Source: Thermoanaerobaculia bacterium
GTDB taxonomy: Bacteria; Acidobacteriota; Thermoanaerobaculia; Multivoradales; DATKCC01
Length of the DNA stretch: 26,262 bases
NCBI GenBank assembly: GCA_033762835.1
Contig: JANRLG010000123.1
Span: forward strand, 1-26,262
Direction of reading: 5' to 3'
Positions within the stretch are counted from its first letter, which is position 1; each line of letters begins with the position of its first letter. This document shows positions 1 through 26,262 of the stretch, in pieces. The notes under the pieces are model-generated. The model saw only the letters and a program-made list of their open reading frames with translations. It was not told the DNA's origin and made no database searches. The position numbers and the translations under genes are program-made.

Positions 1-38
1 CGCCTCCTGAACGCTGGTGTTCAAGGAGGCCCGACCGG

Positions 39-2408: not shown

Positions 2409-2513
2409 GGCACGACCGACTCACCCCTGCCGCTGCCGCCCGTGGTCCGCCGGGATCACGAAGCCGCCCGGCCCGACTCCAGAACATCCCCTGACCTTTC
2501 TGAGGAGAAGACT

Positions 2514-3233: not shown

Positions 3234-3259
3234 GGCCCTAGCCCGCTTCCCTCGCGGAT

Positions 3260-3284
3260 CGGACCGGGACCGGTCCGCGTTTTT
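3260..3284 (+). terminator. putative rho-independent terminator after paralog A
   Basis: Stem cggaccg (3260-3266) / cggtccg (3271-3277) with 4-nt loop, followed by TTTTT (3280-3284), 27 nt after the stop at 3233. Confidence 0.5.
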
Positions 3285-3323
3285 CCCGTGGACCTGCCTC
3301 CGGATCCCTGAAAGAGGAGTCTC

Positions 3324-4037
3324 ATGAAACTGTCACGTGCCGTTCTCTTCGCAGGTGCCTTCGCCCTCGGCGCGGCCTCCGCCTCTGCCCAAACCATTCC
3401 CGCCGGTGCCGATCGCTGGGTGACCCCGGCCAACGGCCAGACCTACTTCGTCTTCCCGAAGGGCGACCTCGAGTCCCTGTGCGGCCGGCCCGCCACCGGC
3501 GCTTTGTACCAGGCCTACTTCGTCGGCGATCCGCTCGCGGGCAATGACTGGGACACCGCCGTCACCCGGCTCGACAACGCCACGTTCAACACCGCGGGCG
3601 TTGCCACCACGCGCATCCAGGTCACCGCCCTGCGGTTCAAGAGCCTGAATCCGGTGAGCACCCCGTGCGGCGTGCTGACTTTCAAGGCCGAATTGAACGG
3701 CGGCCAGCCGATCTCCACCATGACGATCACCAAGACATCGGCGAAGGGCGGTACGTTCACCGCCAACATCCCGGTCAACGTGGTGATCCGCGCTTACAAC
3801 CAAAGCGGCGCGCCCGTCGGCCAGTTGTTCTACTCCCGGAACCTGCCGAATCCGACCACCGGGGCACCGTGGTCCTTCGGTCCCACCGGCGTCTTCCGGC
3901 CGGGTATCAGCACGACCGAAACCTGCGTCGCCCAGCTGCGGCAGAAGCTCGCCGGCACCTCGCCGACCTCGAGCCACTACTACTTCATCGAGAACCTGAT
4001 CGCCCAGGGCAGGTGCACCCAGACGGTTCTGCCCTAG
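3324..4037 (+). CDS. secreted 4-Cys protein of unknown function, paralog B
   Basis: ATG 3324 preceded by AGAGGAG (3312-3318). Signal peptide MKLSRAVLFAGAFALGAASASA|Q. Same conserved blocks and Cys pattern as 2514-3233, including the C-terminal HYYFIENLIAQGRCT. Confidence 0.7.
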   Translation: MKLSRAVLFAGAFALGAASASAQTIPAGADRWVTPANGQTYFVFPKGDLESLCGRPATGALYQAYFVGDPLAGNDWDTAVTRLDNATFNTAGVATTRIQVTALRFKSLNPVSTPCGVLTFKAELNGGQPISTMTITKTSAKGGTFTANIPVNVVIRAYNQSGAPVGQLFYSRNLPNPTTGAPWSFGPTGVFRPGISTTETCVAQLRQKLAGTSPTSSHYYFIENLIAQGRCTQTVLP

Positions 4038-4045
4038 CCCTTCGC

Positions 4046-4080
4046 GTCCTCCGGCCCCGCCTCGGCAGGCGCCGGAGGAC
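4046..4080. terminator. inverted repeat between convergent genes (possible bidirectional terminator)
   Basis: 10-bp perfect inverted repeat gtcctccggc (4046-4055) / gccggaggac (4071-4080) around a 15-nt GC-rich loop. Lies between the stop of the + gene (4037) and the stop of the - gene (4090). No U-tract. Confidence 0.4.
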
Positions 4081-4089
4081 CCTCCCTCG

Positions 4090-5916
4090 TCACGGCGTGG
4101 CGGTGATCTTGACGCCGTCGATGCCGCATTCGACCAGGCTGGCAGTCGCCAAATCCCCGCACTCGAACTGAATGCGGATCGTCTGGCCCTTGAGGCTGGT
4201 CAAGTCGGCGCTGCGCAGAACCCAGGCGCCGTTGCGGTTGCTGGCCGCCCCGAGCTGCTCGTAGACCGTGGTGGTTGTCGCGGCGATCACCTTGGCGCGC
4301 AAAAAGTCGGCACTCGAGGCGTTGCTGCCGTGGGCGAGGTAGCCGTAGAACTCGAGGGTGATCGCCGTCGCCGTCGCGGGCAGGCTGATCGCCGCCGAGC
4401 GCACGGTGGTGACTCCGCCGTCGAGATCGAACGCTCCCGCCGAGGTCCCGGCCGCCGCTCCCGTGACCAGATCCCGCGTTCCCGACTGAGCCGTCAACTG
4501 TTTGGCGCCGGACGAAGTCGTCGCCGCCGCGACGCCGATTTCCCAGGCACCGGAGGTGGCGGTGTCGGTGGCGTTGGGGTTGAACACCCAGCCCGTGGCG
4601 GCGCCGTAGAAGGCATCGGCGAACACCGTCACCGGCGCTCCCCCACCGCCGCCGCAGTACTGAGCTTCCTTGCCGATCACCGCGTAAGGGCAGCCCGCCT
4701 TGTCGATCAAATAGAGGATGGCGGACCGATTACGCGCCGTCTGGGCCGGAATGACCTCGTCCGGTGGGTAGAAGCCGCCACCCGCGGAGGACGCCGGATA
4801 CATCTCGAAGGTGAAGACGAAGACTTTGTGGGCACCGTAGAGCCAATCGTCGACGGCGCCGTCGGCGACGTAGAGGTCACTGGCCTGGCCAGGGGTGTAG
4901 CCGTTGGTGGCGGCCATGGCCCGGCCGAGGGTGGAAAACACCGCCTGGTCGTCCGCCGTCATGTCCGCCGGAACGTCGGTGAAGGTGTAGCCGTAGGGCC
5001 ACAACACCAGCTCGCTGTAGGAGTGGAAGTCGATCGCGACTTTGATCTGCTGGCGGCCGCCGACCACCCGAGTCGCCACGAAGTCGCGGACCCGCGCCGT
5101 CTCCGGGCTCGAGAACGCCGCCGTGCCGCGGTAGGTCTCCGAGCTCGGCGAGGTACTGCTGCCGCCGCAGCAGCCCCATTTGTAACCCCAGTTGCGATTG
5201 AGGTCGGTGCCCACCGCGGTAGTGCCGGCGTTGGGCAGGCGGTTCTTGCGCCAGGTCCGGTAGCTGCCGGTGGCGATGTCGTACTCCCCACCGTCGGGAT
5301 TGAGGTCGAACAGCAGGTAGATCTCTCGGGTGTTGACCAACTGGGTGATCGTGCCGTCGACGCCGTACTCGTCGGTCAACATTCGCAAGGTGTAGAGCCC
5401 CTGCTCGACGGTGATGTGCTCGCGGGCGTGTTGGTGGTGGGTGAACAGCACTTCCGGTTCGTCTTCATCGACGCCGACGTTGTCCGAGATCTTGCCCGCC
5501 CAGATCGTCCGGCCCTCGTGGGACGTGCCGATCGAGAAGAGCGAAAAGATCGCCGGGTGGTCGGCCGCGGCCTGGTTCAGCTCCGCCACCATCTCGGCGT
5601 AGTCGTGGTACGCCGAGTCGGCAGGCGGGAACGCGCGGCCGAAGAACTCCGCGGTGACGTCCTCGACCTGCCAGCGCCGCCCGCCGCGCTCCAGGACCTC
5701 CCCGGCCTCCGCCGCCGTCGCCTCAATCAACACGAAATCCGGGCCGAATTCGAAGATCGCGGCGCCGGTCGCCGCGACCTCGCTGCGTTCCTTGGCATCG
5801 CCGACGCCCTGAACGCGATAGATCGCCGTTTCGTCGTTCTTCTGGCCTTCGGCGCCGAACGCGACCGCCGCCAGGCACCCACAGAGCACCCACCCAAGCT
5901 TCCGAGAACCCTTCAT
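4090..5916 (-). CDS. secreted M14-family zinc carboxypeptidase (Streptomyces griseus carboxypeptidase-like) with C-terminal beta-rich domain
   Basis: Start chosen at ATG 5916 ([22 protein letters not shown] signal peptide; AGGAAGG SD just upstream on the minus strand) rather than the ORF-track 6048. M14 motifs are present: HHQHAREH (HxxE zinc ligands), [18 protein letters not shown] (third His), FTFEMYP (catalytic Glu). A ~200-aa Thr/Ala/Gly-rich C-terminal domain ends [13 protein letters not shown]. Confidence 0.85.
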
Positions 5917-6046
5917 GACACCGACCTTCCTCGAGACGGGACGAGCGGCGACAGGCCGCATCCCTGAAAGGACGAAGCCAGTGCCGGAGGTGGCCGCGAC
6001 GTAGACACTCGGGTTTCGGCATAGTCTCGAGCGCCAGGAGGTCACC

Positions 6047-6331
6047 ATGGCAAAAGCTCAATGGAACGGACGGACGATCGCGGAAAGCGAAGTCTTCGAG
6101 GTCGTGGAAGGCAATGTCTACTTCCCGCCCGGCAGTGTCGACCCGCAGTACCTGAAAACCAGCAACACGACGACCGTGTGCGGCTGGAAGGGCACCGCGA
6201 GTTACTACACCCTGGTGGTCGACGGGCGCGAAAACCCGGACGCCGCCTGGTACTACCCGCAACCCAAGGAGGCGGCCCAGAACATCACGGGCCACATCGC
6301 GTTCTGGCGCGGTGTCACTGTCGAACGTTAG
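6047..6331 (+). CDS. DUF427 domain protein
   Basis: 94-aa ORF, AGGAGG at 6035-6040 before ATG 6047. Sequence [58 protein letters not shown] has the length and conserved W/YY/WYYP pattern of DUF427. Confidence 0.75.
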
Positions 6332-6479
6332 GCAGGACGCTTTCGCCGCCTCAACCTTTCGCCCTTTCCACCGTTAGATACAAACGGAGGCAACCCATCG
6401 CCCGGTCTCACCCGTTTGGGGAGCCTTCGTGTTCTCGGACACACAGTGGCGAATCCAACCCCTACCAGAGGACACCGGC

Positions 6480-7046
6480 ATGATTGTTCCCGCTGTTCCG
6501 GTGACCGACCTCCTGCGCGAGTGGGTGGGCGGCAAGTCTGAAAACCTCGATCACCTGCTTCCCGTTCTCTACGACCAACTACACCGCATCGCAGCCCGTG
6601 AGCTCCGGCGCGAGAGCGGCGACCACACCCTGCAGCCGACCGCCCTCGTCAACGAGGCCTACCTCAAGTTGCGCGACATCGCCGGGGTGTCTTTCGCGAG
6701 CCGAAACCAGTTCCTGGGCTTCGCCGCCCACTTGATCCGCCGTATCCTGGTCGACCATGCCCGCCGCAAGCAGGCCCAGAAACGGGGCTCGGCCGGCGTC
6801 AAGGTGAGCCTTCTCGAGGCCGACGCCGTGGCCTGGTCGCGTCCGCCGGATCTGGTCGCCTTGGACGACGCGTTGATGCAGCTCAGCGCCCTCGATCCCC
6901 GCAAGGGGGCGGTCGTCGAGCTGCGCTTCTTCGGCGGCTTGTCCGCGGAGGAGATCGCCGTCCTGCTCGAAACCTCCGCGGTGACGGTGCATCGCGAATG
7001 GCGGCGCGCCCGCGCGTGGCTGCTGCGGGAGATGCAGGCGTCGTGA
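6480..7046 (+). CDS. ECF-type sigma-70 factor (PF07638/Sigma70_ECF-like, ECF43-like Ser/Thr-kinase-associated group)
   Basis: AGAGGA at 6467-6472 before ATG 6480. An upstream GTG 6429 is possible but has no SD. The conserved TLQPTALVNEAYLKL block is typical of the PF07638 family. The C-terminal region-4 HTH (LSAEEIAVLLETSAVTVHREW) is present. The stop TGA 7044-7046 overlaps the start of the kinase gene. Confidence 0.8.
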   Translation: MIVPAVPVTDLLREWVGGKSENLDHLLPVLYDQLHRIAARELRRESGDHTLQPTALVNEAYLKLRDIAGVSFASRNQFLGFAAHLIRRILVDHARRKQAQKRGSAGVKVSLLEADAVAWSRPPDLVALDDALMQLSALDPRKGAVVELRFFGGLSAEEIAVLLETSAVTVHREWRRARAWLLREMQAS

Positions 7047-9712
7047 ACGCCGAGCGGTTCCTCCGCGTCGACGCCCTCTTCGCCAAAGCCCTCGAGCTCC
7101 CGGTCGAGGCGCGCGCGGCCTTCCTCGCCGAAGTCTGCGGGGACGACGGCGACCTCCGTCGACAGCTCGAGGAGTTGCTCGCCGCGGACTCGAAAGCCTC
7201 CGGCTTCCTCGAGTCGGCCTCCCCCTCGCCGGAGCTCGGCGTCGGATCGTCGGTCGGGCCGTACCAGCTCGAGAGCCTGCTCGGGCGCGGCGGCATGGGT
7301 GCGGTGTATCTCGCCCGGCGTGCCGATCTCGATCGGCCGGTGGCGCTGAAGCTGGTCGACAGCCCGTTCCGCCACCCCCAATTGGTGCCGCGTTTCCACG
7401 CCGAACGGCAGATCCTGGCGCGGCTCGAGCATCCGGGCATCGCGCGGCTCTACGACGCCGGAGAGACCGCGGACCAGGTGCCCTACCTCGTCCTCGAGTA
7501 CGTCGACGGCGAGCCGCTCGACCGTTACTGCGATCGGCTCGAATTGGACTTGGGTGCCCGCGTCGAGTTGTTCCGCAAGCTGCTCGACGCCGTCGCGCAC
7601 GCCCACCAGAGCCTGCTGATCCATCGCGACATCAAACCGAGCAACGTTCTGGTCCGGGCGGACGGCCAAGTCAAGCTGCTCGACTTCGGCATCGCCCAAC
7701 GGGTCGATCGCGACCTCGGCGCCGCCTCGGCCACCAGCTCGCGCCCCATGACGCCAGCCTACGCGAGCCCGGAGCAGGTCCGCGGCGAGCCCCTGACCAC
7801 GGCCACCGACATCTACTCGTTGGGCGTCGTGTTCTACGAACTTCTGGCCGGCCGGCGGCCCTACCGGGTGAAGTCGGATCTGCCCCACGAGCTCGAAGCG
7901 GCGATCCTCGAGCAGGAGCCCGAGCGGCCCAGTGCGGCGTCCGTACCGTGGCGGCGCCAGCTGGCCGGCGACCTCGACACCATCGTCCTGACCGCCTTGG
8001 ACAAGGACCCTGCCAAGCGCTACCGGTCCGTCCTGGAGCTGCAAGCGGATCTCGAGCGTTGGGCGGATTTTCGACCGATTGCCGCCCGGCCGCCATCGCG
8101 GACCTACCGCCTCGCCAAGTTCGTGCGGCGGCATCGGGTCGGCGTGGCCGCCGGGGTGCTCGGCGCCGCCCTCGGTCTCGGTCTCGTGGTGAGCCTGTTC
8201 CAAGAGCGCAACCGGGCGGCCCGCGAGCGGGACCGCGCGCAAGAGGCCCTCTCCTTCGTCGTCTCCGTCTTCACGCAGGACTCGCCCTACCTCCAGGGCA
8301 CCCGAGAAGTCACCGCCCGCGAGATTTTGGTCGCCGCGAAGGACCGGGCCGAAACGGAACTGACCAACGATCCGGACTTGCAGGCCGACTTGTTCCGGGT
8401 ACTCGGCCAGGCCACCGCGGGCATCGGACGCTACTCGGAGGCCCAAGCCCTTTTGACGCGAAGCCTGGAGGCGGTGCGGGTCCGCAGCGGCGCCTCCCCC
8501 ACCCTCGCCACGAACCTCGAGGCCATCGGTTGGGTCGAGTACCTGCAGGGCGACTTCGAGGCCGCGCTGCCTCACCTCGAGGAGGCGGTCGACTTGCGCC
8601 GTCGCTTCCAGCCCGGAAGCCAAGAGCTCTCGGTGGCTTTGCAGCTGCTGGGAAACGTGCTCATCGAACACGATCGAGAGTCCGAGTCGCCCGAGCTGGT
8701 GCGCACCGAGCGGCTCTTCCACGAGTCTCTGCTGATCCTCGAACGTCTCGAACCCGGGGGTGGCCCCGGCACCGAGGCGAGCTTGGCCGGGTTGGTGAAA
8801 GTGGCGAGTCGGCGGCGCAACCTCGGTCCCGCCGAAGTCCTCGCCCGGCAAGTACTGGCGATGACGCGCCGCCGCAACGGGGAGCGCCACACCGCAACCG
8901 CCACCACCGAACGCAGCCTGGCGCAGATCCTCGTCGACCAAGGCCAGTTCGACGAAGCCGAAACGCTCGTGCGCCAGGCCCTGGCGAGCCTCGAGGCCTT
9001 GTTACCCGCCGACCATCCCGAGATCACCACGGCCGTCAGCGACCTCGGCATGACCCTGCTGGCCGCGGGACGGCTGGCCGAAGCCGAGCCCCTGTTGCGG
9101 CGGGCCTACGACGAGTCCCAGGCCCGCCTCGGGCCCGACCACCCGACCACGCTAGCGTCTCTCACACTGCTCGCCAACACCTTGCAGAACCTCGGGCGCA
9201 ACGCGGACGCGGTACCTCTGCGGGAACGGGCCCTCGCCGCCGAGACGCGCGTCCACGGCGAAGAGAGCCTGCCGGTGGCCTACACCCTCTCGGTCCTCGG
9301 CCAGGCCCTCGCCACCCTGGGTGAGTCCGAACGTGCCGAAGTCTTCGCTCGCCGCGGCCTGACGCTGATCGAGAAGCTGCGAGAGGCCGGGCACCCGGAA
9401 ATCGGTCGGGGGCATCGCTACCTCGGCGCGGTCCTCCTGAAGGCCGGCAAGCCGGCGGAGGCCGAGGGGCACCTGCGGCGGGGACTCGAGGCGCAGCGCA
9501 AGGACTTCGGCGTCGACTTCTACCAAACGGCAGCGCTCGAAACCGCGCTCGCTACCTGTCTGTTGCGGCTGGGCCGGCTCGACGAAGCCGGCGAGCTCCT
9601 CGACCACGCGGTGGGCGTCCTCGAAAAGCAGTTCAGCGCCGACCATCCGCTCGTCCTCGGCGTCCACCGAGCCCAGGCGGAGTTGGCGGCGGCCCGAGGC
9701 GGCGGACGTTGA
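7043..9712 (+). CDS. membrane-anchored Hanks-type Ser/Thr protein kinase with large C-terminal TPR domain (paralog 1)
   Basis: Start placed at GTG 7043 (VNAERFLRVDALF...). This aligns with the N-terminus of paralog 2 (MQEGRFLRIDGVF) and overlaps the sigma stop as GTGA; ORF-track ATG 6998 is the alternative. Kinase motifs: GRGGMGAVYLA, VALKLV, HRDIKPSNVLV, DFGIA, TPAYASPEQ. One TM helix follows (VGVAAGVLGAALGLGLVVSLF), then ~500 aa of TPR-like repeats. Confidence 0.85.
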   Translation: MNAERFLRVDALFAKALELPVEARAAFLAEVCGDDGDLRRQLEELLAADSKASGFLESASPSPELGVGSSVGPYQLESLLGRGGMGAVYLARRADLDRPVALKLVDSPFRHPQLVPRFHAERQILARLEHPGIARLYDAGETADQVPYLVLEYVDGEPLDRYCDRLELDLGARVELFRKLLDAVAHAHQSLLIHRDIKPSNVLVRADGQVKLLDFGIAQRVDRDLGAASATSSRPMTPAYASPEQVRGEPLTTATDIYSLGVVFYELLAGRRPYRVKSDLPHELEAAILEQEPERPSAASVPWRRQLAGDLDTIVLTALDKDPAKRYRSVLELQADLERWADFRPIAARPPSRTYRLAKFVRRHRVGVAAGVLGAALGLGLVVSLFQERNRAARERDRAQEALSFVVSVFTQDSPYLQGTREVTAREILVAAKDRAETELTNDPDLQADLFRVLGQATAGIGRYSEAQALLTRSLEAVRVRSGASPTLATNLEAIGWVEYLQGDFEAALPHLEEAVDLRRRFQPGSQELSVALQLLGNVLIEHDRESESPELVRTERLFHESLLILERLEPGGGPGTEASLAGLVKVASRRRNLGPAEVLARQVLAMTRRRNGERHTATATTERSLAQILVDQGQFDEAETLVRQALASLEALLPADHPEITTAVSDLGMTLLAAGRLAEAEPLLRRAYDESQARLGPDHPTTLASLTLLANTLQNLGRNADAVPLRERALAAETRVHGEESLPVAYTLSVLGQALATLGESERAEVFARRGLTLIEKLREAGHPEIGRGHRYLGAVLLKAGKPAEAEGHLRRGLEAQRKDFGVDFYQTAALETALATCLLRLGRLDEAGELLDHAVGVLEKQFSADHPLVLGVHRAQAELAAARGGGR

Positions 9713-9725
9713 AACGGAGACGGCC

Positions 9726-12401
9726 ATGCAAGAAGGGCGTTTTTTGCGCATCGACGGAGTTTTCGCCCAGGCTCTGGAACTGCCAGCGGCGGACCGCGGG
9801 GCCTTCCTCGCCGAGGCCTGCGCAGACGATCACGAGCTGCGCCGCGAGGTCGAAGCACTGCTGACGGCGGATCGCAAAGCCTCGCGATTCCTCGAAACCT
9901 CACCCGAACCGGCCTCGCTGGCTCCCGGCACCCGTGTCGGCCCTTACCAGCTCGAGGGGCTCCTCGGGCGCGGCGGCATGGGCTCGGTGTACCTCGCGCG
10001 GCGGGCGGATCTCGATCGACCGGTGGCGCTCAAGCTGGTCGATGCCCCCTACCGTCACCCCGAGCTGGTGCCGCGTTTCCACGCGGAACGACAAATCCTG
10101 GCGCGCCTCGAGCACCCGAGCATCGCCCGGCTCTACGACGCCGGGGAAACCGCCGACGACGTGCCGTACCTCGTCCTCGAGTATGTCGACGGCGAGCCGC
10201 TCGACCGCTACTGCGACCGGCTCGAGCTCGGTCTCGGGGAACGCGTCGGGTTGTTCAGGAAGCTTCTCGACGCCGTCGCCCACGCCCACCAGAGCCTCCT
10301 GGTGCACCGCGACATCAAACCCAGCAACGTCTTGGTGACCGCCGACGGCCAGGTCAAGCTGCTGGACTTCGGGATCGCGCAGCGCCTCGACCCGCAGCGC
10401 AGTGCCGCCTCGGCCACCTCCTCCCGCATGATGACCCCGGCCTACGCGAGTCCGGAACAGGTCCGTGGCGAGCCCCTAACGACCGCCACCGACATCTTCT
10501 CCCTCGGGGTGGTGCTCTACGAGCTCCTCACGGGGTGCCGGCCCTACCAGGTGCACTCGGAGCTGCCCCACGAGCTCAAAGCGGCGATTCTCGAGCAGGA
10601 GCCCGAGCGGCCCAGTGCGGCGGCCGTGCCGTGGCGGCGCCAACTGGCCGGCGACCTCGACACCATCGTCCTCACGGCCTTGGCCAAGGAGCCTGCCCAG
10701 CGCTACCGGTCCGTTCTGGAGCTGCAAGCGGATCTCGGGCGCTGGTCGGATCATCGGCCGATTTCCGCCCGTCCACCGTCGAGCATCTATCGCCTGACGA
10801 AGTTCGTGCGGCGGCGCCGGGCCGGGGTCGCAGCCGGCGTGCTCGGCGCCGGACTCGGCCTCGGTCTCGTGGTGAGCCTGTTTCAAGAACGGGATCGTGC
10901 CGCCCGCGAACGCGACCGTGCGCGCGACGCTCTCGCCTTCGTGGTCGAGGTCTTCGGGACCAAGCGACCCTACGATCAGGGCTCGCAGGAGATGTCGGCG
11001 CGGGACATTCTGGCCGCCGCGGCGAAGCGAGCCGAGGCCGAGTTGGGAGCGGACCCGGACTTGCAGGCGGCGCTTTTCCGCTCGTTGGGCCAAGCGACCG
11101 TGGGCATCGGCCGCTATGCCGACGCGGCGCCGCTCCTGACCCGCAGCCTCGAACACCACGCCCGAACTCAACCCGGCTCCGCCGAACACGCCGCCAGTCT
11201 CGAGGCCATCGGCTGGGCCGAGTTTCTCTTGGGCCAACGCGCCGAGGCCATCGCCCATCTCGAGCAGGCCGTGGCGCTCCGGCGCCGGCTGGCCCCCTTC
11301 TCCCTCGACCTCGCCCTCGCGCTCAATCTGCTCGCCAATGTCGAAAGCGAAATGGTCCGCACGACGGACGCGCAGACTCTCGATCGGATCGCGGCGCGCT
11401 TCAACGAGGCCCTGGAGCTGAGCCGGCGGCTCGAGGGACCGAACGGTACCGGCGTGATCGCAAACCTCGGAGGCCTGGTCAAGATCGCCGCCGCCCGCGG
11501 CGAGCTGCCCCAGGCGGAGCAGCTCGCCCGCCAGGTCGCCGCGGCCAACCTAGCCGCCTACGGACCGGAACATCCCGAAACGGTGTCGAGCCAACGCAGT
11601 CTGGCCTACACGCTAGTCGACCAAGCCAAGTTCCCGGAAGCCGAGGCCTTGTTTCGGGAGTCCTTGGCGACTCTCGAGCGCATTCTCCCGCCGGATCATC
11701 CGGAGATCGACACCGGGATCACGGACGTCGGTCTCGTGCTCAGTCGCCAAGCCAAGTACGTCGAAGCCGAGCCGTTCCTACGGCGCGCCTACGAGTCCAC
11801 CCGCGTGCAGCGGGGCGAGGAGCACCCGGACACGGTCATCAGTCTCGGCAACCTGGCCACGGCCATCCAGGGCCAAGGGCGACTCGCGGAGGCCATTCCC
11901 TTGCGCGAGCGGGAGGTGGCCCTGGGCCGCCGCGTGCACGGCGCGGACAGCGTCCTCGTGGCGCAAACGCTCGGGAGTCTGGCCCGCGCTCTGGCGGACA
12001 GTGGGCAGGTCGAACGGGCGCTGCCGATCGCGCGCGAGAGCCTGGCGATCCAGACGAAGGTGCTCGAGCCCGGGCATCCGAGCCTCGCCTGGCCCCACCG
12101 GAGTCTGGGCATGGTGCTCTCGGCCGCGGGGCAGTGGGAGGAGGCTGCCGAGCACCTGAAAGCGAGCCTCGAGATCCTGCGTCGAACCCAGGCTCCGGAC
12201 TTCTTTCAGACCGCGCGCGTCGAAGTACTGCTCGGCTCCAGCTTGACCCACCTCGGGCGCTACGACGAAGCCGCGGAGCTGATCACGCACGGCCGCGAGA
12301 TGCTGGCGCACCACTTCCCGCCCGAGCACGAGCGGGTGGTCGAGGCCGACGCGAAATGGACCGAACTCGAGCGCGCTCGGGCCACCGTGGCGCCGGGGTG
12401 A
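9726..12401 (+). CDS. membrane-anchored Hanks-type Ser/Thr protein kinase with C-terminal TPR domain (paralog 2)
   Basis: GGAGA at 9715-9719 before ATG 9726. The kinase domain is near-identical in blocks to paralog 1 (GRGGMGSVYLARRADLDRPVALKLVD, HRDIKPSNVLV, DFGIAQR, TPAYASPEQVRGEPLTTATDI). TM helix AGVAAGVLGAGLGLGLVVSLF. The TPR region is more divergent. Confidence 0.85.
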   Translation: MQEGRFLRIDGVFAQALELPAADRGAFLAEACADDHELRREVEALLTADRKASRFLETSPEPASLAPGTRVGPYQLEGLLGRGGMGSVYLARRADLDRPVALKLVDAPYRHPELVPRFHAERQILARLEHPSIARLYDAGETADDVPYLVLEYVDGEPLDRYCDRLELGLGERVGLFRKLLDAVAHAHQSLLVHRDIKPSNVLVTADGQVKLLDFGIAQRLDPQRSAASATSSRMMTPAYASPEQVRGEPLTTATDIFSLGVVLYELLTGCRPYQVHSELPHELKAAILEQEPERPSAAAVPWRRQLAGDLDTIVLTALAKEPAQRYRSVLELQADLGRWSDHRPISARPPSSIYRLTKFVRRRRAGVAAGVLGAGLGLGLVVSLFQERDRAARERDRARDALAFVVEVFGTKRPYDQGSQEMSARDILAAAAKRAEAELGADPDLQAALFRSLGQATVGIGRYADAAPLLTRSLEHHARTQPGSAEHAASLEAIGWAEFLLGQRAEAIAHLEQAVALRRRLAPFSLDLALALNLLANVESEMVRTTDAQTLDRIAARFNEALELSRRLEGPNGTGVIANLGGLVKIAAARGELPQAEQLARQVAAANLAAYGPEHPETVSSQRSLAYTLVDQAKFPEAEALFRESLATLERILPPDHPEIDTGITDVGLVLSRQAKYVEAEPFLRRAYESTRVQRGEEHPDTVISLGNLATAIQGQGRLAEAIPLREREVALGRRVHGADSVLVAQTLGSLARALADSGQVERALPIARESLAIQTKVLEPGHPSLAWPHRSLGMVLSAAGQWEEAAEHLKASLEILRRTQAPDFFQTARVEVLLGSSLTHLGRYDEAAELITHGREMLAHHFPPEHERVVEADAKWTELERARATVAPG

Positions 12402-12437
12402 AACGAGTCGGCCGGCACCGCGTCAGCGCCGAGGTCG

Positions 12438-12469
12438 GCGCTGGACCCGCTGGGCGCTGGACCCGCTGG
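12438..12469. repeat. perfect 2 x 16-nt tandem direct repeat (gcgctggacccgctgg) with partial third copy
   Basis: Read directly at 12438-12453 and 12454-12469, followed by gcgctcgggg. Lies in the 86-bp spacer between convergent gene ends (12401 and 12488). Confidence 0.6.
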
Positions 12470-12487
12470 GCGCTCGGGGCGAGGGCG

Positions 12488-13459
12488 TCACGGCCACAGG
12501 ACCACCTTGCCGATCACGGCGCGGCTTTCGAGCAAAGCGTGGGCCTCTGCGCCCTCGGCCAAGGGGAAGCCGCGGGCGATCCGCACCTTCAGCGAGCCGT
12601 CCCGCACCCAGCCGAAGAGCTCCGCGGCCCGCCGTCGGCGCTCGTCCGGCCCGGTCAGCACATTCCACAGATCACCACCCGTGAGGGTCTTCGACTCGTC
12701 CATCAGCCGCCGCGGGTCGATCGGTGCCGGATCGCCGCCCGCCATCCCGTAGAAGACGACGTGACCGCCTACCCGCGTGACGTCGAGGCTCGCGGACAAC
12801 GTCGAGCCCACCGCGTCGTACACCACGTCGACGCCCTGGCCGTTCCGCGACCAGGTGCGAGCCGCCGTCACCCAGTCGCCGTCGCTCGGGAAGGTCGCGT
12901 CGGCACCCGCGGCCAAGGCGGCAGCCCGCTTTTCGGCACTCGAGGCGAGGGCGAAGACCCGAGCGCCCAGCCGACGGGCGATCTGCACCAGGAGCAGACC
13001 CACGCCACCGCCCGCGGCGTGGACGAGCACCTCCTCGCCGGGCGCTACGGCGTGGCTGTCGCGCACGAGGTACTGTGCCGTCAACCCCTGGAGCAGGAGT
13101 GCCGCGGCAGTATCGAAGTCGATGTCGTCCGGCAGCGGGATGAGTTTCTCGCGCGGCACCGCCACGAGCTCGGCGTTGGCCCGGGGCGAGTCCGCGAACC
13201 CGACGCGGTCGCCAATCAGGAACGTCGCATCCGCCTCGCCACCCAAGGCGACGATCGTGCCAGCCGCCTCGTACCCGGCGACGTAGGGCGGCTCGCCCAC
13301 CAGGTGGTAGCGGCCCTGGCGGCGGTAGACGTCGGCGAAGTTGAGGCCGATGGCCGCCGTCTTGACGAGGGCAAAACCGGGCGGGACCTCGGGAGTCGGC
13401 AGCTCTCGGACCACCAGCACCTCGGGTCCGCCGAACCGGTCGAAGGTCAAAGCGCGCAT
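12488..13459 (-). CDS. NADPH:quinone oxidoreductase / zinc-type alcohol dehydrogenase-like (MDR superfamily)
   Basis: Start set at ATG 13459 (MRALTFDRFGGPEVLVVRELPTPE...); the ORF-track upstream extension is Arg/Gly-rich junk. GroES-like N-domain and Rossmann motif (VLVHAAGGGVGLLLVQIARRLGARV) are typical of Qor-type MDRs. Stop TGA 12488-12490. Confidence 0.85.
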   Translation of the reverse strand: MRALTFDRFGGPEVLVVRELPTPEVPPGFALVKTAAIGLNFADVYRRQGRYHLVGEPPYVAGYEAAGTIVALGGEADATFLIGDRVGFADSPRANAELVAVPREKLIPLPDDIDFDTAAALLLQGLTAQYLVRDSHAVAPGEEVLVHAAGGGVGLLLVQIARRLGARVFALASSAEKRAAALAAGADATFPSDGDWVTAARTWSRNGQGVDVVYDAVGSTLSASLDVTRVGGHVVFYGMAGGDPAPIDPRRLMDESKTLTGGDLWNVLTGPDERRRRAAELFGWVRDGSLKVRIARGFPLAEGAEAHALLESRAVIGKVVLWP

Positions 13460-13470
13460 GGCCGGGAAGT

Positions 13471-14040
13471 CTAGGACAGGTCGAAGAGCGGCAGGGTCTC
13501 GGCCAAGGCCCCTTCGATCTCGAGCAAGCGCCGTTTGGTGATCGTGCCCTGGGGAGCCGAGAAGCCGCCGAGCTTGCCGCCCGCGGCCACCACCCGGTGA
13601 CAGGGCACGACGAGGGGCCACGGGTTACGGCCAAGAGCTTGGCCGACCTCGCGAGCCGCGCCGGGCTGGCCGAGGCGCAAAGCGATGACGCCGTAGGTCA
13701 GGGTGGCGCCCGGTGGAATCGTGCGGGTGATTTCGTAGACCCGGCGGTCGAACTCGGGCACGCGCTCGAGGTCGAGAGCCACGTCCTGGAGATCGACGGG
13801 TTCGCCGGCCAGCAGGCGAGTCATGGCGTCGATGGCGCTCCGAACCGGTGCCGGCAAAGCCGTTCCCGAATCGGCTGGCACCTCGGAAAGGTCACCGGTG
13901 CGGCGAGCGAGCCGGCGGGCGGTGGCCTCCCGGCTCGCCTCGGGAAGCTGCACCGCGACCAGGCCGCGCTCGTCCCAGGCCACGCCCACGGGGCCAATGG
14001 CCGTGTCGAAGAGGCGCGCCCCGGCCAGCGGTTCGGTCAC
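13471..14040 (-). CDS. ogt: methylated-DNA--protein-cysteine methyltransferase (O6-alkylguanine-DNA alkyltransferase)
   Basis: 189 aa. Active-site motif VPCHRVV and the surrounding helix-turn-helix of the Ogt/MGMT family (YGVIALRLGQPGAAREVGQALGRNPWPLVVPCHRVV). GTG start at 14040-14038 overlaps the upstream gene's TGA (GTGA). Confidence 0.85.
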   Translation of the reverse strand: MTEPLAGARLFDTAIGPVGVAWDERGLVAVQLPEASREATARRLARRTGDLSEVPADSGTALPAPVRSAIDAMTRLLAGEPVDLQDVALDLERVPEFDRRVYEITRTIPPGATLTYGVIALRLGQPGAAREVGQALGRNPWPLVVPCHRVVAAGGKLGGFSAPQGTITKRRLLEIEGALAETLPLFDLS

Positions 14041-14540
14041 TTCACCTCGCTGAGATTCATGGTCCCGGTCCGCTCCTCTTTGCCGTCTACGACGCTGGCA
14101 TGGGTGCCGATGAACCGGCCGTCTTTGAATTCGCCCTGGAAGGTGAAGACCTCGCCGTCCGAGCTCTCCGCTTCGGGTTTCGCCGGCGCCTGGCCCGGAG
14201 CAGTGAGGTCCCCGATGAACGGCAGCACCGAGCCGGTTGCCAAGTCTCGGTCGAATCGGACCCGGCCCTTCAAGACCCCCTCACCGAATTTGCCCTCCGC
14301 GTTACCCGAGTAAACGTGGGAGGAACCCGCCGTCCCCCCTTTCGCGGCACGGAAGACGACTCGCCACCGCCCGTCCTCGAGAGGAACGAAGGTCGCCGAG
14401 AGGTCTCCATGGTCGTTTCCGTCTTCCCAGGTGTAAGTGCCGGTCAAGTTCTTCGTCGCTGCCCCCTGGGCGGCGAACGCCGGGCTCAGCGTCCAGAGCA
14501 GAGCCACCAGAATGAGCACGAGATGTAGAGCCTTGGACAT
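14037..14540 (-). CDS. small secreted protein of unknown function (signal peptide)
   Basis: Start at ATG 14540 preceded by AAGGAGG on the minus strand; the ORF-track upstream extension is rejected. MSKALHLVLILVALLWTLSPAFAAQG is a signal peptide. 167 aa, Gly/Asp/Thr-rich. First gene of a co-directional three-gene cluster. Confidence 0.55.
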   Translation of the reverse strand: MSKALHLVLILVALLWTLSPAFAAQGAATKNLTGTYTWEDGNDHGDLSATFVPLEDGRWRVVFRAAKGGTAGSSHVYSGNAEGKFGEGVLKGRVRFDRDLATGSVLPFIGDLTAPGQAPAKPEAESSDGEVFTFQGEFKDGRFIGTHASVVDGKEERTGTMNLSEVK

Positions 14541-14829
14541 CAGACCTCCTTGGATGCAGGCATTCTGGCAGAAGTCAGAGGGGCGAGCTCGGAGGGGCCT
14601 CGAGCACCACACCCAAACCGTCGCAGCGTTCCAGCGTCCAGAGAGCTGGTCAAAACTTTCTTCGCGACGCTCCGTAGCTGATATCGAGAGCACCGAAACC
14701 CCCAGACAAACAGGCCAATACGGTCCGCCGTCGGCGGGGCGAAGCCGTTGGGGGAACCGGGAGCTCTTGGAGCAAACTCCGGAACCGCCGATCCCAAGAA
14801 AGAACCCGTAAAATCGATTGGAGCAATCC

Positions 14830-16863
14830 ATGACCGCCCTGGCATGGCCCCTCGTGGCTGGCGCCGCCCTGTTCCTGGTTCTCGTCATCGTCCTCTTCCG
14901 CGCCCTCGTCTACATCCCCAACACCCGCGTGGGTCTCGTCGAGAAACTCTTCGCGGCCAAAGGCTCCGTGGCCTCCGGCTTGATCGCCCTGCAGCAGGAG
15001 GCGGGCTTCCAGCCCCAGGTGCTGCGCGGTGGCTGGCACTTGCTGACCCCGTTCCAGTATCGCGTCCACAAGATGCCTCTGGTGACGATTCCTCAGGGCC
15101 AGATCGGCTACGTCTTCGCCCGCGACGGCCAGGCGCTGCCGGCCACCCAGACCCTCGCCGCCAACGACCGCGCCGTCGACTTCCAAGATGCCGAGGCCTT
15201 CCTGCGTGCCGGAGGCCAAAAAGGTCCCCAGCGATTGATCCTGCGCGAGGGCACCTATGCCATCAACCAGGTGCTCTTCGTCGTCCTGACCCAGGACCAG
15301 ACCTACTTCCTGCCCATGGATCGCAGCGAACACGATTTGTTCAAGAAGATGACCCAGGCAATCGCCGAACGCGGCGGCTTCCAGCCGATCGTGGTGCGCG
15401 GTGAAGAAGACCGCATCGCCGTCATTACCGTGCACGACGGCCCGGCACTGCCCTCCGGCGAGATCATCGCGCCCCTGGTCGGCCACGACCCGGCACAGCC
15501 GGCGACCTACCACAACAACTTCCAGGACCCGGACAAGTTCCTGCGCGCCGGGGGCCAACGCGGCCGCCAGCTGCAAGTACTGGTGGAAGGTACCTACTAC
15601 ATCAACCGGCTGTTCGCCACCGCCGAGTGGATTCCGAAAACCGTCATCGAGGTCGGCACCGCGGGGGTCGTGGTGTCCTACACCGGCGATACCGGCGTCG
15701 ACCTCTCGGGCCAAGAGTACAAACACGGCGAAATGGTGGCCGTCGGCGAGCGCGGCGTCTGGAGCGAGCCGCTCCTGCCCGGCAAATACGCCTTCAACAC
15801 CTACGCCGGCAAGGTCACGATCGTCCCGACCACCAACTTCATCCTGAAGTGGAATCGCAGCGAGGTCGGCACCCACCGCTTCGACGAGAACTTGGCCGAG
15901 GTGAGCCTGATCACCAAGGACGCCTTCGAGCCCAGCCTACCGCTGTCCGTGGTGGTACACATCGACTACCGCAAGGCGCCCCTCGTGGTGCAGCGCTTCG
16001 GCGATATCAAACGGCTGGTCGAGCAAACCCTCGACCCGATGGTCAGCGCCTACTTCAAGAACGTCGCCCAGACCCGCACGCTGATCCAGCTCATCCAGGA
16101 CCGTTCGGCGATCCAGGCCCAGGCCGGGGTCGAAATGAAAGGCCGTTTCGAGGTCTACAACCTGGAACTCCAGGAGGTGCTGATCGGCACCCCCAACTCG
16201 GGCGGCTCCGGCGGCCAGATCGAGCAGATCCTGACCCAGCTGCGCTCGCGCCAGATCGCCGAGGAGCAGGTCGAGACCTACACCCGCCAGGAACGCGCCG
16301 CCGCCAAGGAGCGCGAGCTGCGCGAGGCCGAATCCCGCGCCAAGCAGCAGACCATGCTGACCGAGTCCGAGATCTCGATCACCGTGCAGTCGAACCAGGG
16401 CAAGGCCGACTACGCCCGCGCCCAGCAGCAGGCCGCCCAGATCCAGACCCTCGCCCAGGCCGAGGCCCAGAAAACGCGCATCCTGGCCGACGGTGAGGCC
16501 CAAAAGATCCGCCTCCTCGCCGAATCCGAAGCCGATCGCGCCGCCCGCGTGGGCCTCGCCCAGGCCATCGCCGTCGAAGAGCAGGTCAAGGCCTACGGCG
16601 GCCCGCAGTTCCAGCTCACCCAGCAGGTCCTGCAACGCTTCGCCGAGGCGGTCGAAAAGTCCAAGGTCGACGTCGTGCCCAAGATCCAAATGGGCGGCAA
16701 CGGCCAAGGCGGCGGCTTGATCGAGAACCTCCTCACCGTGCTCCTCTCCGACAAAGTCGGCGAAGTCGTCGGTGCCGCGGTGTCCACCACACCCAACCCC
16801 CAGGCCGAGGCCCTGAAGGCCGAGATCCGCAAGGGGCTGGCGGAGTCGACCGACCGCGGGTAG
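14830..16863 (+). CDS. flotillin-like SPFH/Band-7 family protein (YqiK-like)
   Basis: ATG 14830 has GGAG 6 nt upstream; TTG 14818 is the ORF-track alternative. N-terminal TM helix (LAWPLVAGAALFLVLVIVLF) is followed by an SPFH-like region. The C-terminal ~200 aa is an Ala/Glu/Gln-rich coiled coil with repeated AEAQK/EAQKIR motifs typical of flotillin C-termini. An internal duplication sits near aa 120 and 235. Confidence 0.75.
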   Translation: MTALAWPLVAGAALFLVLVIVLFRALVYIPNTRVGLVEKLFAAKGSVASGLIALQQEAGFQPQVLRGGWHLLTPFQYRVHKMPLVTIPQGQIGYVFARDGQALPATQTLAANDRAVDFQDAEAFLRAGGQKGPQRLILREGTYAINQVLFVVLTQDQTYFLPMDRSEHDLFKKMTQAIAERGGFQPIVVRGEEDRIAVITVHDGPALPSGEIIAPLVGHDPAQPATYHNNFQDPDKFLRAGGQRGRQLQVLVEGTYYINRLFATAEWIPKTVIEVGTAGVVVSYTGDTGVDLSGQEYKHGEMVAVGERGVWSEPLLPGKYAFNTYAGKVTIVPTTNFILKWNRSEVGTHRFDENLAEVSLITKDAFEPSLPLSVVVHIDYRKAPLVVQRFGDIKRLVEQTLDPMVSAYFKNVAQTRTLIQLIQDRSAIQAQAGVEMKGRFEVYNLELQEVLIGTPNSGGSGGQIEQILTQLRSRQIAEEQVETYTRQERAAAKERELREAESRAKQQTMLTESEISITVQSNQGKADYARAQQQAAQIQTLAQAEAQKTRILADGEAQKIRLLAESEADRAARVGLAQAIAVEEQVKAYGGPQFQLTQQVLQRFAEAVEKSKVDVVPKIQMGGNGQGGGLIENLLTVLLSDKVGEVVGAAVSTTPNPQAEALKAEIRKGLAESTDRG

Positions 16864-16879
16864 GAGAGGTGCGGAGGAT

Positions 16880-16903
16880 GGAGGCACGGTAGGCCGTGCC
16901 TCC
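16880..16903. terminator. 10-bp perfect hairpin between convergent genes (putative bidirectional terminator)
   Basis: ggaggcacgg (16880-16889) / ccgtgcctcc (16894-16903), 4-nt loop. Lies between the flotillin stop (16863) and the stop of the minus-strand gene (16917). No U-tract on either side, so confidence is modest. Confidence 0.4.
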
Positions 16904-16916
16904 ACGGCTGAGCCGT

Positions 16917-17990
16917 TCAGGTGCGGAAAAGCGACACCGGGCTAATGACGGTTTCGTCATTGCGCCCTGGAAGTGGGGGCGTAGGCTGCTGCTCCCGCAG
17001 AACGCGGATGTCTCCGGCCACGCGGATGACCAGGGAGAGTCCCTCGATCAACAGGCCGATGGCCCAGGCGAAGAGGTAAAAGCCACCGAGCGTCCCCGCG
17101 AACCTGTTGACCGCAGTCCGGCGCTGGCCACGAATAGCAGACTGTATCTCTGAGATTTCCTGCTCGGTGTGTTGGACGTTGTTGGGTACCTGGGCCAACT
17201 TGTTGCGCACTTCGCCCCATGCGGGCTGGCTTCTGTGGCGCCTGTTGTCCACTTCTTGGAGTTGGCCGGCGAGCCATTTTTCTTCATTAAGCGATGAAAA
17301 ATAAGAATTTGCGACGACGTTCCCTTGGACCTCTTGGTTTGTTTGGAAGAACTCGTGGGCGTTGTTCTCACGGCTGCCGTAGTCCGAATAGGGCATGGGT
17401 GACGTCTGTGGACCGAGCTGAACTCGGAGGCTCTCCGGGAGTGACAGCTCAAGGGTCAATCGAGCCAAGCGGAGCGCCAGTAGTTGCTGCTCGGTTTGAA
17501 GTTGCCATCTGGTGAGCGCCTTGGTCTTGAGTTGAGACCATTCATCGTCAAACTGGGCGAGTTCGGCTCTGAAGTGTTCCGGCTGCCTTCCCAGCACTAC
17601 GAGGTATTCCTTCTTCTCCCGCAAAATCCGGAAATCTACTCGGGAGGGTAGGCTGGCCCAAGCTCCAGCGAGGCCCATGGCAAGGAGCAGGATAGCTCCG
17701 ACGACCAAGCTGGCCTTGAGGCTGGCCAGATACCGGCGAATCAGGAATTGGTCGCTGCGGACACTCTCGTATTCTTCCCGCCGTTCGGTGTCTGCGACCT
17801 CGGCCAGGGTCTTACGAAGGAAGCTGAGGGGGCTGACGAAGACCAGGACGAAGAGTCGTCCCAGCCCCGCGGCCAGAGCCGGAATGTCGCTTCTCCTCAC
17901 GAAGGCTCCCAAAGCCAAGAGGAATAGCAGGAAGAGGACCGTGGCGGGGATGAGATTGGTGGCGATGCTGTTGAACAAGTCTTTGAACAT
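16917..17990 (-). CDS. integral membrane coiled-coil protein of unknown function (last gene of CHAT operon; compositionally atypical)
   Basis: ATG 17990 preceded by GGAGGAA on the minus strand (ORF-track 18005 is TTG). 357 aa with N-terminal TM helices, a further TM near aa 95-115 and a C-terminal TM (LGGFYLFAWAIGLLIEGLSLVI). The central region is Gln/Glu/Asn/Lys-rich and probably coiled coil. Local GC is ~40-57% across 17160-17640 with AAT/GAA/AAA/CAA codons, versus ~70% background. Confidence 0.6.
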   Translation of the reverse strand: MFKDLFNSIATNLIPATVLFLLFLLALGAFVRRSDIPALAAGLGRLFVLVFVSPLSFLRKTLAEVADTERREEYESVRSDQFLIRRYLASLKASLVVGAILLLAMGLAGAWASLPSRVDFRILREKKEYLVVLGRQPEHFRAELAQFDDEWSQLKTKALTRWQLQTEQQLLALRLARLTLELSLPESLRVQLGPQTSPMPYSDYGSRENNAHEFFQTNQEVQGNVVANSYFSSLNEEKWLAGQLQEVDNRRHRSQPAWGEVRNKLAQVPNNVQHTEQEISEIQSAIRGQRRTAVNRFAGTLGGFYLFAWAIGLLIEGLSLVIRVAGDIRVLREQQPTPPLPGRNDETVISPVSLFRT

Positions 17991-18014
17991 GGTTCCTCCG
18001 GACAACAGGTAGGG

Positions 18015-26100: not shown

Positions 26101-26262
26101 CCGGTACCAGCTGCCGGTCTTCGTCCCGTTCGCGAAGGCATGTTCGATCTCGTAGTCGGCTTCCGAGGACGAAGAGGCCAAGCACAACCACTGGTCGGCC
26201 GTGAGATTGGCCGTGCCGAGGCTGGCATTGTTGCGTCGGTCGCTGCCCAGGCGGTACTCGAA
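23173..26262 (-). CDS. RHS/YD-repeat polymorphic toxin, 3' portion (5' end lies beyond the window); C-terminal ~175-aa variable domain with a hydrophobic Gly/Ala segment and coiled coil
   Basis: The reading frame is open from the window edge; the ORF-track 'M' at 26187 is a TTG inside a continuous frame (upstream codons read FEYRLGSDRRNNASLGTANLTADQW). Multiple YD repeats (RYDALGNL, TYDALGNPSD, FRYDPSSQLV, YQYDLFGNLTQ). RHS core: DHLGSTRRITD...WPYGE...RFTGHERD...ARYYSPWLGRFLSTDP...LYSYVQGNPLTLVDPDGR. A variable tail follows DPDGR, about 23173-23700. Confidence 0.85.
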   Translation of the reverse strand, partial: FEYRLGSDRRNNASLGTANLTADQWLCLASSSSEADYEIEHAFANGTKTGSWYRKGGTRFFPLADTEVDRLGNTTVSRDAAGRATSLTLDDRSRIVSVTEPSGLVTTTQFDTPGRHTVREAKSGGTLLQRGEYFFDRFGRLERELQRLPAVNTSGFQDAERCIEYLPNSQVKRQSAFAAACPSVASDSGWTRFKFYDPFGKPGEVIAPDGKSTRFTLYGEQTKVVRAYIETGAAGNPEVHTKFLTDRRGNLARVVENESAIPGHAVRQTIYQYDVGGHLTKTTQSCRENCPAGYTGPQERRFGYDQRGFVKWQELPELGTTDHATVKFERYDALGNLGTRRFEETDPAGPAAFDLDFNYDRAGRPTQVIDRSTGKPVKEYFYATENRTEGAQTDYRAGKLVMAKRWNPIYGLRGESGLGVVVTEILGYWDVAGRLTTRETRSSDGTVFRNQVTYDALGNPSDIEYPTCIYPAACAAALPPRKVRTTYGFGLPTRIEQTGTGAQPFASAIEYFPNGLWSKAVHANGTADFLTLHDAFMPLVGSLRSERNSNTFFTTGTLSFDTAGNVTAAGADTFRYDPSSQLVFAQLAGLGSQAYQYDLFGNLTQLGSRVLKPDPLSNRLTPSNNEWIDYDQNGNLTGYFDTTRWFDSFNQLSGETGPGVFRDMLYTVDDERVMVRDYMTGEEIWSLRGPDNKLLRQAATTTDRTGPWSWKRDQIFRAGSLFAAVLPQGTGQKVQHYHLDHLGSTRRITDGVTGLPIGDEMKHWPYGEVAADNVDGPEPLRFTGHERDYGCAAASCAAQVGLRDDLDYMHARYYSPWLGRFLSTDPAGASPANPKSWNLYSYVQGNPLTLVDPDGRAGKAPEEVTSMGPAGWWVWLEAYSPLGHAVETAGAGLAAVVGTVALGAVDAVIIHPVAVANKEFRMEMLQEAGPGAFPTTRILWGTIGTFVEGLWRGHEVVKLESQLQQVGTELSLVTRRIVSAQTVDERYALEAYYKDRLEKLRAELEEIRRRLRELEEGAEQEEPEERPSG

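Follow-up and report, generated by a model that had tools for sequence, protein, structure and literature searches.

The window analysed here is a 26,262-bp contig (JANRLG010000123.1) of a metagenome-assembled genome of Thermoanaerobaculia, with an overall GC content of 67.5%. Its lowest-GC stretch is inside a minus-strand gene at 16917 to 17990, annotated as hypothetical protein SF066_08535 and called the target gene below. The target gene is the last of three genes in a small cassette that also encodes a CHAT (caspase-like) protease. Low GC content is a long-standing trait of this gene, and every known allele in the lineage is alike in composition. It is likely (probability about 0.7) that this is an old, low-GC gene of an accessory cassette whose alleles are swapped by recombination, with a function that can be proposed only conditionally. 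Four close homologous loci on independent contigs of 64–68% GC, L001 to L004, encode target proteins that are 70%, 59%, 45%, and 45% identical to that of the window. In L012, a locus of a close relative, the cassette is missing. The genes and features at the locus are as follows; GC3 is the GC content at third codon positions, and TM stands for transmembrane.

14830 to 16863, plus strand: SPFH/Band_7 gene, convergent with the cassette; 98% amino acid identity in L001 and L002
16863 to 20664, minus strand: three-gene cassette of 3.8 kb (CHAT protease, 2-TM protein, target); replaced by an 84-bp spacer in L012
16880 to 16903, no strand: 10-bp G+C-rich hairpin in the 53-nt spacer between the convergent genes; z = -4.4
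16917 to 17990, minus strand: target gene, 357 aa; GC 58.6%, GC1/2/3 (the three codon positions) = 0.63/0.41/0.71
18015 to 18812, minus strand: middle cassette gene, 265 aa, with two N-terminal TM helices and a soluble domain of ~180 aa; no family match
18802 to 20565, minus strand: CHAT protease gene, 587 aa; PF12770, E = 6e-22
19921 to 19923, minus strand: His215 of the CHAT protease, motif GGHGD, conserved in four complete cassettes
19783 to 19785, minus strand: Cys261 of the CHAT protease, motif NACLS, conserved in four complete cassettes
20658 to 22793, minus strand: DPP-IV / S9 peptidase gene, conserved; heads the co-directional run

The genes are tightly packed. The middle gene overlaps the CHAT gene by 11 nt, and the target gene starts 24 nt downstream of the middle gene with an ATG preceded by GGAGGA. 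The first-pass annotation, made from the sequence alone, had placed a GC dip in the last gene of an operon. The target gene is indeed the last of the co-directional run, but it is on the minus strand. The hairpin downstream of it has no U-tract and is thus only a possible bidirectional terminator. In the alignment of the window, L001, and L002, this hairpin is kept between the convergent genes of the divergent alleles, and the stem in L001 has an apparent compensatory pair change (G to A paired with C to T).

The protein encoded by the target gene has the following layout. TM helices and domain limits are from hydropathy and the AF2 model, with conservation also used for TM4 and the central domain.

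17898 to 17954, minus strand: predicted TM1, codons 13–31
17820 to 17876, minus strand: weaker hydrophobic helix, possible TM2, codons 39–57
17655 to 17720, minus strand: predicted TM3, codons 91–112
17103 to 17651, minus strand: central domain, codons 114–296, hydrophilic, all-helical, Q/N/E-rich (also S-rich)
17031 to 17099, minus strand: predicted TM4, codons 298–320, followed by the conserved motif RVAGDIRVLR
17271 to 17360, minus strand: GC trough, codons 211–240; 43% GC and GC3 0.50, where amino acids alone predict 54% GC
17051 to 17650, strand not applicable: lowest-GC 600-nt window of the contig in GC profiles; 56.3% GC

The GC dip is not a chance fluctuation. The 600-nt windows of the contig have a mean of 67.4% GC with a standard deviation of 3.4. 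Their minimum falls where the first-pass annotation had put it, and the lowest 600-nt window outside the target gene has 61.2% GC. In all 26 kb, the only 60-nt lines with 50% GC or less are those at 17281 (40%) and 17521 (50%), both inside the interval from 17100 to 17700 that had been flagged. The lines from 17281 to 17640 have 40, 57, 60, 62, 50, and 52% GC. The flagged interval matches the central helical domain almost exactly.

The dip is nevertheless smaller than had been described. The flanking genes had been given as 70–73% GC, with line 7261 at 73% as the example. The value for that line is correct, but the directly adjacent genes have 65–66% GC, and values of 70–73% are confined to the left half of the contig. 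The description as a sharp island does not hold, because the entire gene is depressed (58.6% GC) and the two upstream cassette genes also have a low GC3 (0.76–0.80). The TM-encoding ends, which had been called GC-rich, have 52–64% GC, above most of the middle but under the contig mean. The contig as a whole is uneven in composition: its left half (1–14000) has ~69–73% GC and its right half (14000–26262) ~62–69%. The right half contains an RHS gene, the cassette, and orphan open reading frames (ORFs), and may be a generally more flexible region.

Two additive and apparently old causes would explain the low GC content: the amino acid composition of the helical domain, and a weaker use of G/C-ending codons that would act across the gene and, to a smaller degree, across the cassette. 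The two contributions were separated by recoding the amino acid sequence with the contig's own codon usage. For codons 91–300, the observed GC content is ~57% and the content expected from amino acids is ~64%, whereas 60-codon windows of other genes average 68%. Amino acid composition accounts for about 40% of the deficit, and a reduced preference for G/C-ending codons for the other 60% or so. The segment had been described as rich in Gln, Asn, Lys, and Glu. In the central 170 aa, Q (11.8% vs 3.6% elsewhere), N (6.5% vs 2.0%), and E (10.0% vs 6.6%) are enriched, but K is barely so (3.5% vs 2.4%). The reported use of AAT, GAA, AAA, and CAA codons stands in part. The shares of GAA (50% vs 33%), CAA (48% vs 29%), and AAT (29% vs 17%) are raised modestly, none of them significantly when taken singly, but that of AAA is not raised (22% vs 25%).

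The GC3 of the target gene is 0.71 against 0.847 expected, a difference of ~7 standard errors by our own binomial estimate. GC3 is 0.684 at amino-acid-invariant codons and 0.679 at variable codons. The codon effect is thus gene-wide and does not come from locally relaxed constraint, which was dropped as an explanation. The effect extends to the cassette. In the window, GC3 is 0.71 in the target gene, 0.76–0.80 in the two upstream cassette genes, and 0.87–0.89 in the flanking DPP-IV and Band_7 genes. In all five loci (the window and L001 to L004), the GC3 of cassette genes is 0.68–0.80 vs 0.78–0.93 in non-cassette neighbours; the neighbours have 0.85–0.93 in the window, L001, L002, and L004, and 0.78–0.85 in L003.

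As one origin of the dip, the first-pass annotation had offered that a donor of lower GC content recently contributed the middle of the gene by horizontal transfer, between native GC-rich ends. The centre is the lowest-GC point of the contig and also the most divergent part between relatives, and distant family members are present in genomes of 48–54% GC, as expected under such a graft. All four close homologues, however, have 54–59% GC and a GC3 of 0.59–0.74 in contigs of 64–68% GC, and the trough at codons 211–240 is common to the four alleles that were scanned position by position (the window and L001 to L003). That annotation had itself named a shared local composition in related high-GC homologues as evidence against the acquisition. 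Since this composition is shared, a recent graft into the middle of the gene is rejected. It had also been asked whether the nearest relatives of the central segment come from another phylum; they are the syntenic alleles of the same lineage. The divergence from L001 described below covers the gene from codon 21 on and runs past the stop codon, the GC3 depression reaches the TM-encoding parts and the two upstream genes, and tblastn searches of plasmids and phages found no copies of the target. A recent graft is thus very improbable. The idea of horizontal origin survives in a broader form, in which the whole 3.8-kb cassette, rather than the gene middle, is accessory; it is missing in L012 and has another context in L003.

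The comparison with L001 points to a replacement at the target gene.

16853 to 17928, no strand: block 33% divergent from L001; 351 substitutions in 1076 bp, covering the target gene from codon 21 on and the 3' intergenic region

Nucleotide identity between the window and L001 is 95–97% across the CHAT gene, the middle gene, and the Band_7 gene, and 57–73% over most of the block. In the flanks, 63 of 2008 bp (3.1%) differ in CHAT plus the middle gene and 107 of 2153 bp (5.0%) in Band_7. The first 62 nt of the target gene are identical. The edges at ~17928 and ~16853 are sharp, and mismatches per 50 nt go from 0–2 to 8–25 and then to 0. The synonymous divergence (dS) between the two loci is 0.07 for CHAT, 0.12 for the middle gene, 0.21 for Band_7, and ~1.9 for the target gene, where it is saturated. 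The ratio of nonsynonymous divergence (dN) to dS in the target gene is 0.11 overall for this pair and 0.06–0.46 across all segments and pairs.

The relationships of target gene segments are mosaic and in conflict with those of the flanks. In target codons 21–125, the distance from the window is 0.26 to L001 and 0.20 to L002. In the centre, it is 0.37 to L001 and 0.49 to L002, and in the flanks 0.03–0.04 to L001 and 0.15–0.18 to L002. Compared with L003 and L004, the deep outgroups, the target gene has diverged no further than CHAT and the middle gene have, so it does not run on a constant fast clock. A weaker version of the pattern is found cassette-wide: in L002, CHAT and the middle gene are 15–18% divergent, and Band_7 is 5% divergent.

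The first-pass annotation had named a rapidly diversifying region as the other origin. No other segment differs nearly as much between close relatives as the target gene, chiefly its centre, and to that extent the description holds. The mechanism it implies is not the right one, as dS is saturated and dN/dS is low (0.1–0.36). The pattern indicates replacement by old alleles under purifying selection, and it fits neither hypermutation nor an excess of nonsynonymous change.

Classical positive selection acting in situ on an exposed recognition domain, with low GC as a by-product, would place the variation where it is found. The central domain, ~180 aa long, is the least conserved part of the protein both in the clade and in the family, and it is probably extracytoplasmic. 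In the middle of the gene, dN is 0.31–0.84, and dN/dS reaches 0.36–0.46 against L002 and L004. But synonymous divergence is also raised at least 10-fold (dS ~1.9 vs 0.07–0.21 in the flanks). Because dS itself is raised, selection on the protein cannot be the cause. In addition, dN/dS stays under 0.5 for all segments and pairs, so that pervasive positive selection (dN/dS > 1) was found in none, and the strongly conserved TM region also has saturated synonymous change and incongruent relationships. Such selection is an improbable source of the divergence.

Substitutions pile up very sharply in a single gene, a pattern that could also come from targeted hypermutation by a diversity-generating retroelement (DGR) or another local mutator. 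The 26-kb window has no template-like repeat of the region and no reverse-transcriptase domain in any large ORF. The block is ~1.1 kb long and includes intergenic DNA, far above the size of DGR variable regions. All 12 substitution classes are present, with a transition/transversion ratio of 1.06 and no adenine-specific pattern, and purifying selection is evident. The presence of all classes, together with the lack of adenine bias and of a template repeat in the 26-kb window, excludes a DGR-like mechanism, and DGRs were dropped as a candidate. Hypermutation in general is extremely unlikely.

A chimeric join in the assembly could produce similar edges. All contigs are metagenomic, and the block edges are in strain-identical stretches where assembly graphs can switch strain. 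On the other hand, five independent assemblies have the same gene order, an intact ORF of 357–359 aa, and the same composition, and the reading frame, the ribosome-binding site, and the family-wide conservation are all intact. The chance that the pattern is an assembly artefact is very small indeed.

The CHAT gene, a gene for a protein of ~270 aa, and the target gene are found together in the window and in L001 to L004. In L003, the same three genes are between unrelated genes. In L012, the DPP-IV and Band_7 genes are 92–94% identical to those of the window at the nucleotide level, but they are only 84 bp apart, and the sequence corresponding to 16863 to 20664 is missing. Retention of DPP-IV in L012 places this gene outside the cassette. 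Band_7 distances are 5–6% for all pairs among the window, L001, L002, and L012, and the cassette-bearing L004 is an outgroup at 11–12%. As L012 thus falls inside the group of the window, L001, and L002, the absence of the cassette from L012 is most simply explained as a loss. The atypical composition, the presence/absence polymorphism, and the different context in L003 support the view that the cassette is an accessory islet.

Some neighbouring variation was also observed. In L004, which is syntenic but more distant, an additional alpha/beta-hydrolase gene separates the target gene from Band_7, and another gene within a few kb encodes a large TPR-CHAT protein (L004 positions 9300–11072 and 14499–17080). 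On the minus strand of the window, an ORF of 283 aa at 14037 to 14888 has no family match and a reduced GC3 of 0.74. In the syntenic L002, the interval from Band_7 to the methyltransferase gene contains three other small genes, of which one is faintly PhdYeFM-like, and this may be a second variable spot.

It is possible that the GC3 deficit follows from the divergence of the alleles. Deep divergence would block homologous recombination inside the gene and with it GC-biased gene conversion (gBGC), and synonymous sites would drift to an AT-biased mutational equilibrium. GC3 does fall stepwise with allelic divergence, from 0.89 in Band_7 (5%) to 0.76–0.80 in CHAT and the middle gene (3–18%) and 0.71 in the target gene (20–50%). 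It is independent of amino acid constraint and at its lowest (0.59) in L001, the allele that diverges most. However, DPP-IV has a dS of 0.39 against L002 and still a GC3 of 0.87. Stand-alone family members elsewhere are also GC3-depressed, and gBGC in this lineage is an assumption. This sub-mechanism, which would be compatible with a recombining accessory gene, is therefore doubtful but deserves some credence.

The target protein belongs to a real, uncharacterised family, as an exhaustive profile search found 124 representatives at 50% identity, of 350–390 aa and with the same layout. A profile search of a word-indexed protein database gave only 5 matches. The AF2 model is all-helical with a pLDDT of 92.5. 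Three strong hydrophobic helices (13–31, 91–112, and 298–320) and a weaker one (39–57) add up to about four TM helices. Searches against Pfam, NCBIfam, PADLOC, and PHROGs gave no match or sub-threshold coiled-coil noise, and the sequence-profile search of the PDB gave only coiled-coil compositional matches and no solved fold. There was no match among BFVD viral structures, and the TM bundle had no significant fold match to the 4-TM bundle of pentameric ligand-gated channels. Scans of GTDB genomes and JGI metagenomes found no further target loci. K/R-rich segments follow TM2 and TM4. By the positive-inside rule alone, this distribution suggests that the loop at 58–92 and the C-terminal tail are cytoplasmic and the variable helical domain periplasmic.

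In the distant part of the family, five stand-alone members (L006, L009, L010, L011, and L013) have a GC3 below that of their neighbours. L007, in a 48% GC genome, and L014, with a GC3 of 0.94, are not depressed. The protein therefore has no intrinsic need for AT-rich codons, and a family-wide need of this kind was dropped as an explanation. L006 and L013 represent a second subgroup of the family, 27–28% identical to the target; they are stand-alone and divergently arranged beside a YjbR-family gene. One of these two contigs is from the same metagenome as the cassette-less L012.

Taken together, the most likely explanation is that deeply diverged versions of the whole target gene circulate in the lineage and would be swapped between near-identical chromosomes by homologous recombination. 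Crossovers would fall within the conserved 60 nt at the start of the gene and in the 3' end of its neighbour. Purifying selection on the protein is maintained throughout. As to its function, we infer that the variable helical domain may face the periplasm, that the target protein could be the membrane partner, either sensor or target, of a cytoplasmic CHAT protease, and that some antagonistic interaction may maintain the diversity of alleles. As a working model of low confidence, the cassette would encode a protease module associated with the membrane, with the variable protein as its sensor or target.

A more specific proposal goes further. The cassette would be an undescribed membrane-anchored CHAT conflict or immune module, in which the target protein is a 4-TM sensor or a parasite-targeted receptor. 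Ancient alleles of its extracytoplasmic helical domain would be kept by negative frequency-dependent selection and shuffled among strains as a single-gene unit, and the low GC3 would be the footprint of suppressed recombination, with loss of biased gene conversion, in the allelic block. This proposal is speculative and rather unlikely. Literature searches returned no description of this cassette.

Several observations weigh against the explanation by an old, recombining accessory gene. Distant members of the family stand alone, which makes the association with CHAT clade-specific and the functional model weak. The comparison contigs are all metagenome assemblies, and a strain-switching chimera at shared k-mers would mimic the sharp edges. 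Even with chimeric contigs, divergent alleles in the same gene order must exist in the population. There are only five alleles and dS is saturated, and site-specific positive selection may act at the tip of the domain. Pfam, tRNA, and repeat searches found no integrase, transposase, tRNA gene, or flanking repeat with the cassette. The dinucleotide signature of the cassette is not an outlier (delta* 63 vs 44 +/- 14), so that a foreign signature was rejected as not significant for it, and that of the target gene alone is only in the top 4%. The high GC3 of L014, a high-GC member, means that low GC is not universal in the family. The candidates for the cause of the GC3 depression are an AT-richer shared accessory pool, low expression, and reduced biased gene conversion.

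As an anomaly of composition, the stretch is for the most part unremarkable. High-GC genomes usually carry accessory genes that are richer in AT, and amino acid content explains much of the rest. Three other results are of more interest. The first is an uncharacterised membrane-protein family of 124 representatives, which has an all-helical model of high confidence but neither a Pfam entry nor a relative of solved structure. The second is a clade-specific operon that ties this orphan family to a CHAT caspase-like protease. The third is an unusually clear replacement of a single gene, with 33% divergence inside flanks of 3–5% divergence. Should the cassette prove to serve in defence or conflict, the variable domain is where its specificity determinant would first be sought.

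Several features elsewhere in the contig were observed. An ECF sigma factor gene at 6429 to 7046 is followed by two tandem paralogous Ser/Thr-kinase plus TPR genes at 6998 to 9712 and 9726 to 12401. These paralogs contain repeats at a spacing of 2683 nt, up to 85% identical over 300 nt. Two further tandem paralogous genes (263 and 237 aa) at 2442 to 4037 have no Pfam match, and their 77–93% identical segments are spaced ~800–810 nt apart. An RHS-repeat protein of 1004 aa is encoded at 23173 to 26187, with the RHS core at residues 740–830. Its C-terminal tip has a lower GC3 (~0.68–0.72), and a hydrophobic stretch in it is followed by coiled coil, as would fit the tip of a polymorphic toxin. Downstream of the RHS gene, a gap of 380 bp (22794 to 23172) contains no convincing immunity ORF.

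Among known systems, CHAT and other caspase-like proteases are components of conflict systems such as gasdermin-protease operons, SAVED-CHAT, and TPR-CHAT (e.g., bioRxiv 10.1101/2021.06.07.447441). The cassette shares with them a CHAT protease with a conserved His/Cys pair, which is in a tight operon with membrane proteins, and the cassette is likewise accessory and variable. It differs in having no Pfam match to gasdermin-like, SAVED, TIR, NACHT, or TPR domains. PADLOC matches only the CHAT core (E = 1.6e-8), and neither Pfam nor PADLOC found in the cassette a known system model or any of the established partners for sensing or signalling (SAVED, TIR, NTPase, or TPR). The C-terminal 202 aa of the CHAT protein have no Pfam match, nor have the partner proteins. 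Both partners are orphan membrane proteins, and the cassette is not known to have a defence phenotype. In gasdermin-protease systems, the gasdermin-fold partner has ~240–270 aa; the neighbour in this cassette has 265 aa and two TM helices, and no sequence match to a family or to the PDB.

The target gene resembles the target genes of DGRs in that hypervariability is confined to one gene. It differs from them in the lack of a reverse transcriptase, a template repeat, and adenine bias in the 26-kb window searched, and in a block of 1.1 kb that contains non-coding DNA.

Accessory DNA in high-GC bacterial genomes typically has a lower GC3 than the core genome. The cassette is similar to such AT-rich accessory islets. 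Its GC3 is below that of its flanks, it is present in some relatives and absent in others, and it is between conserved convergent genes. It is also found in a different context in another lineage, and its allelic divergence is above that of the flanks. It differs from them in being only 3.8 kb long and in having no integrase, transposase, tRNA gene, or flanking repeats. Its dinucleotide signature is not clearly foreign, and its composition is stable across alleles with saturated synonymous sites.

At hypervariable loci such as surface-antigen, receptor, and specificity-subunit genes, old alleles are swapped by homologous recombination through conserved flanks. The target gene differs from these in belonging to an uncharacterised family and in being known from five alleles only. 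It shares with them a sharp block of divergence between conserved stretches, a low dN/dS at saturated dS, and mosaic relationships in conflict with the flanks. The phenomenon is thus of a known kind, an accessory cassette of low GC content in which one gene is hypervariable and recombines.

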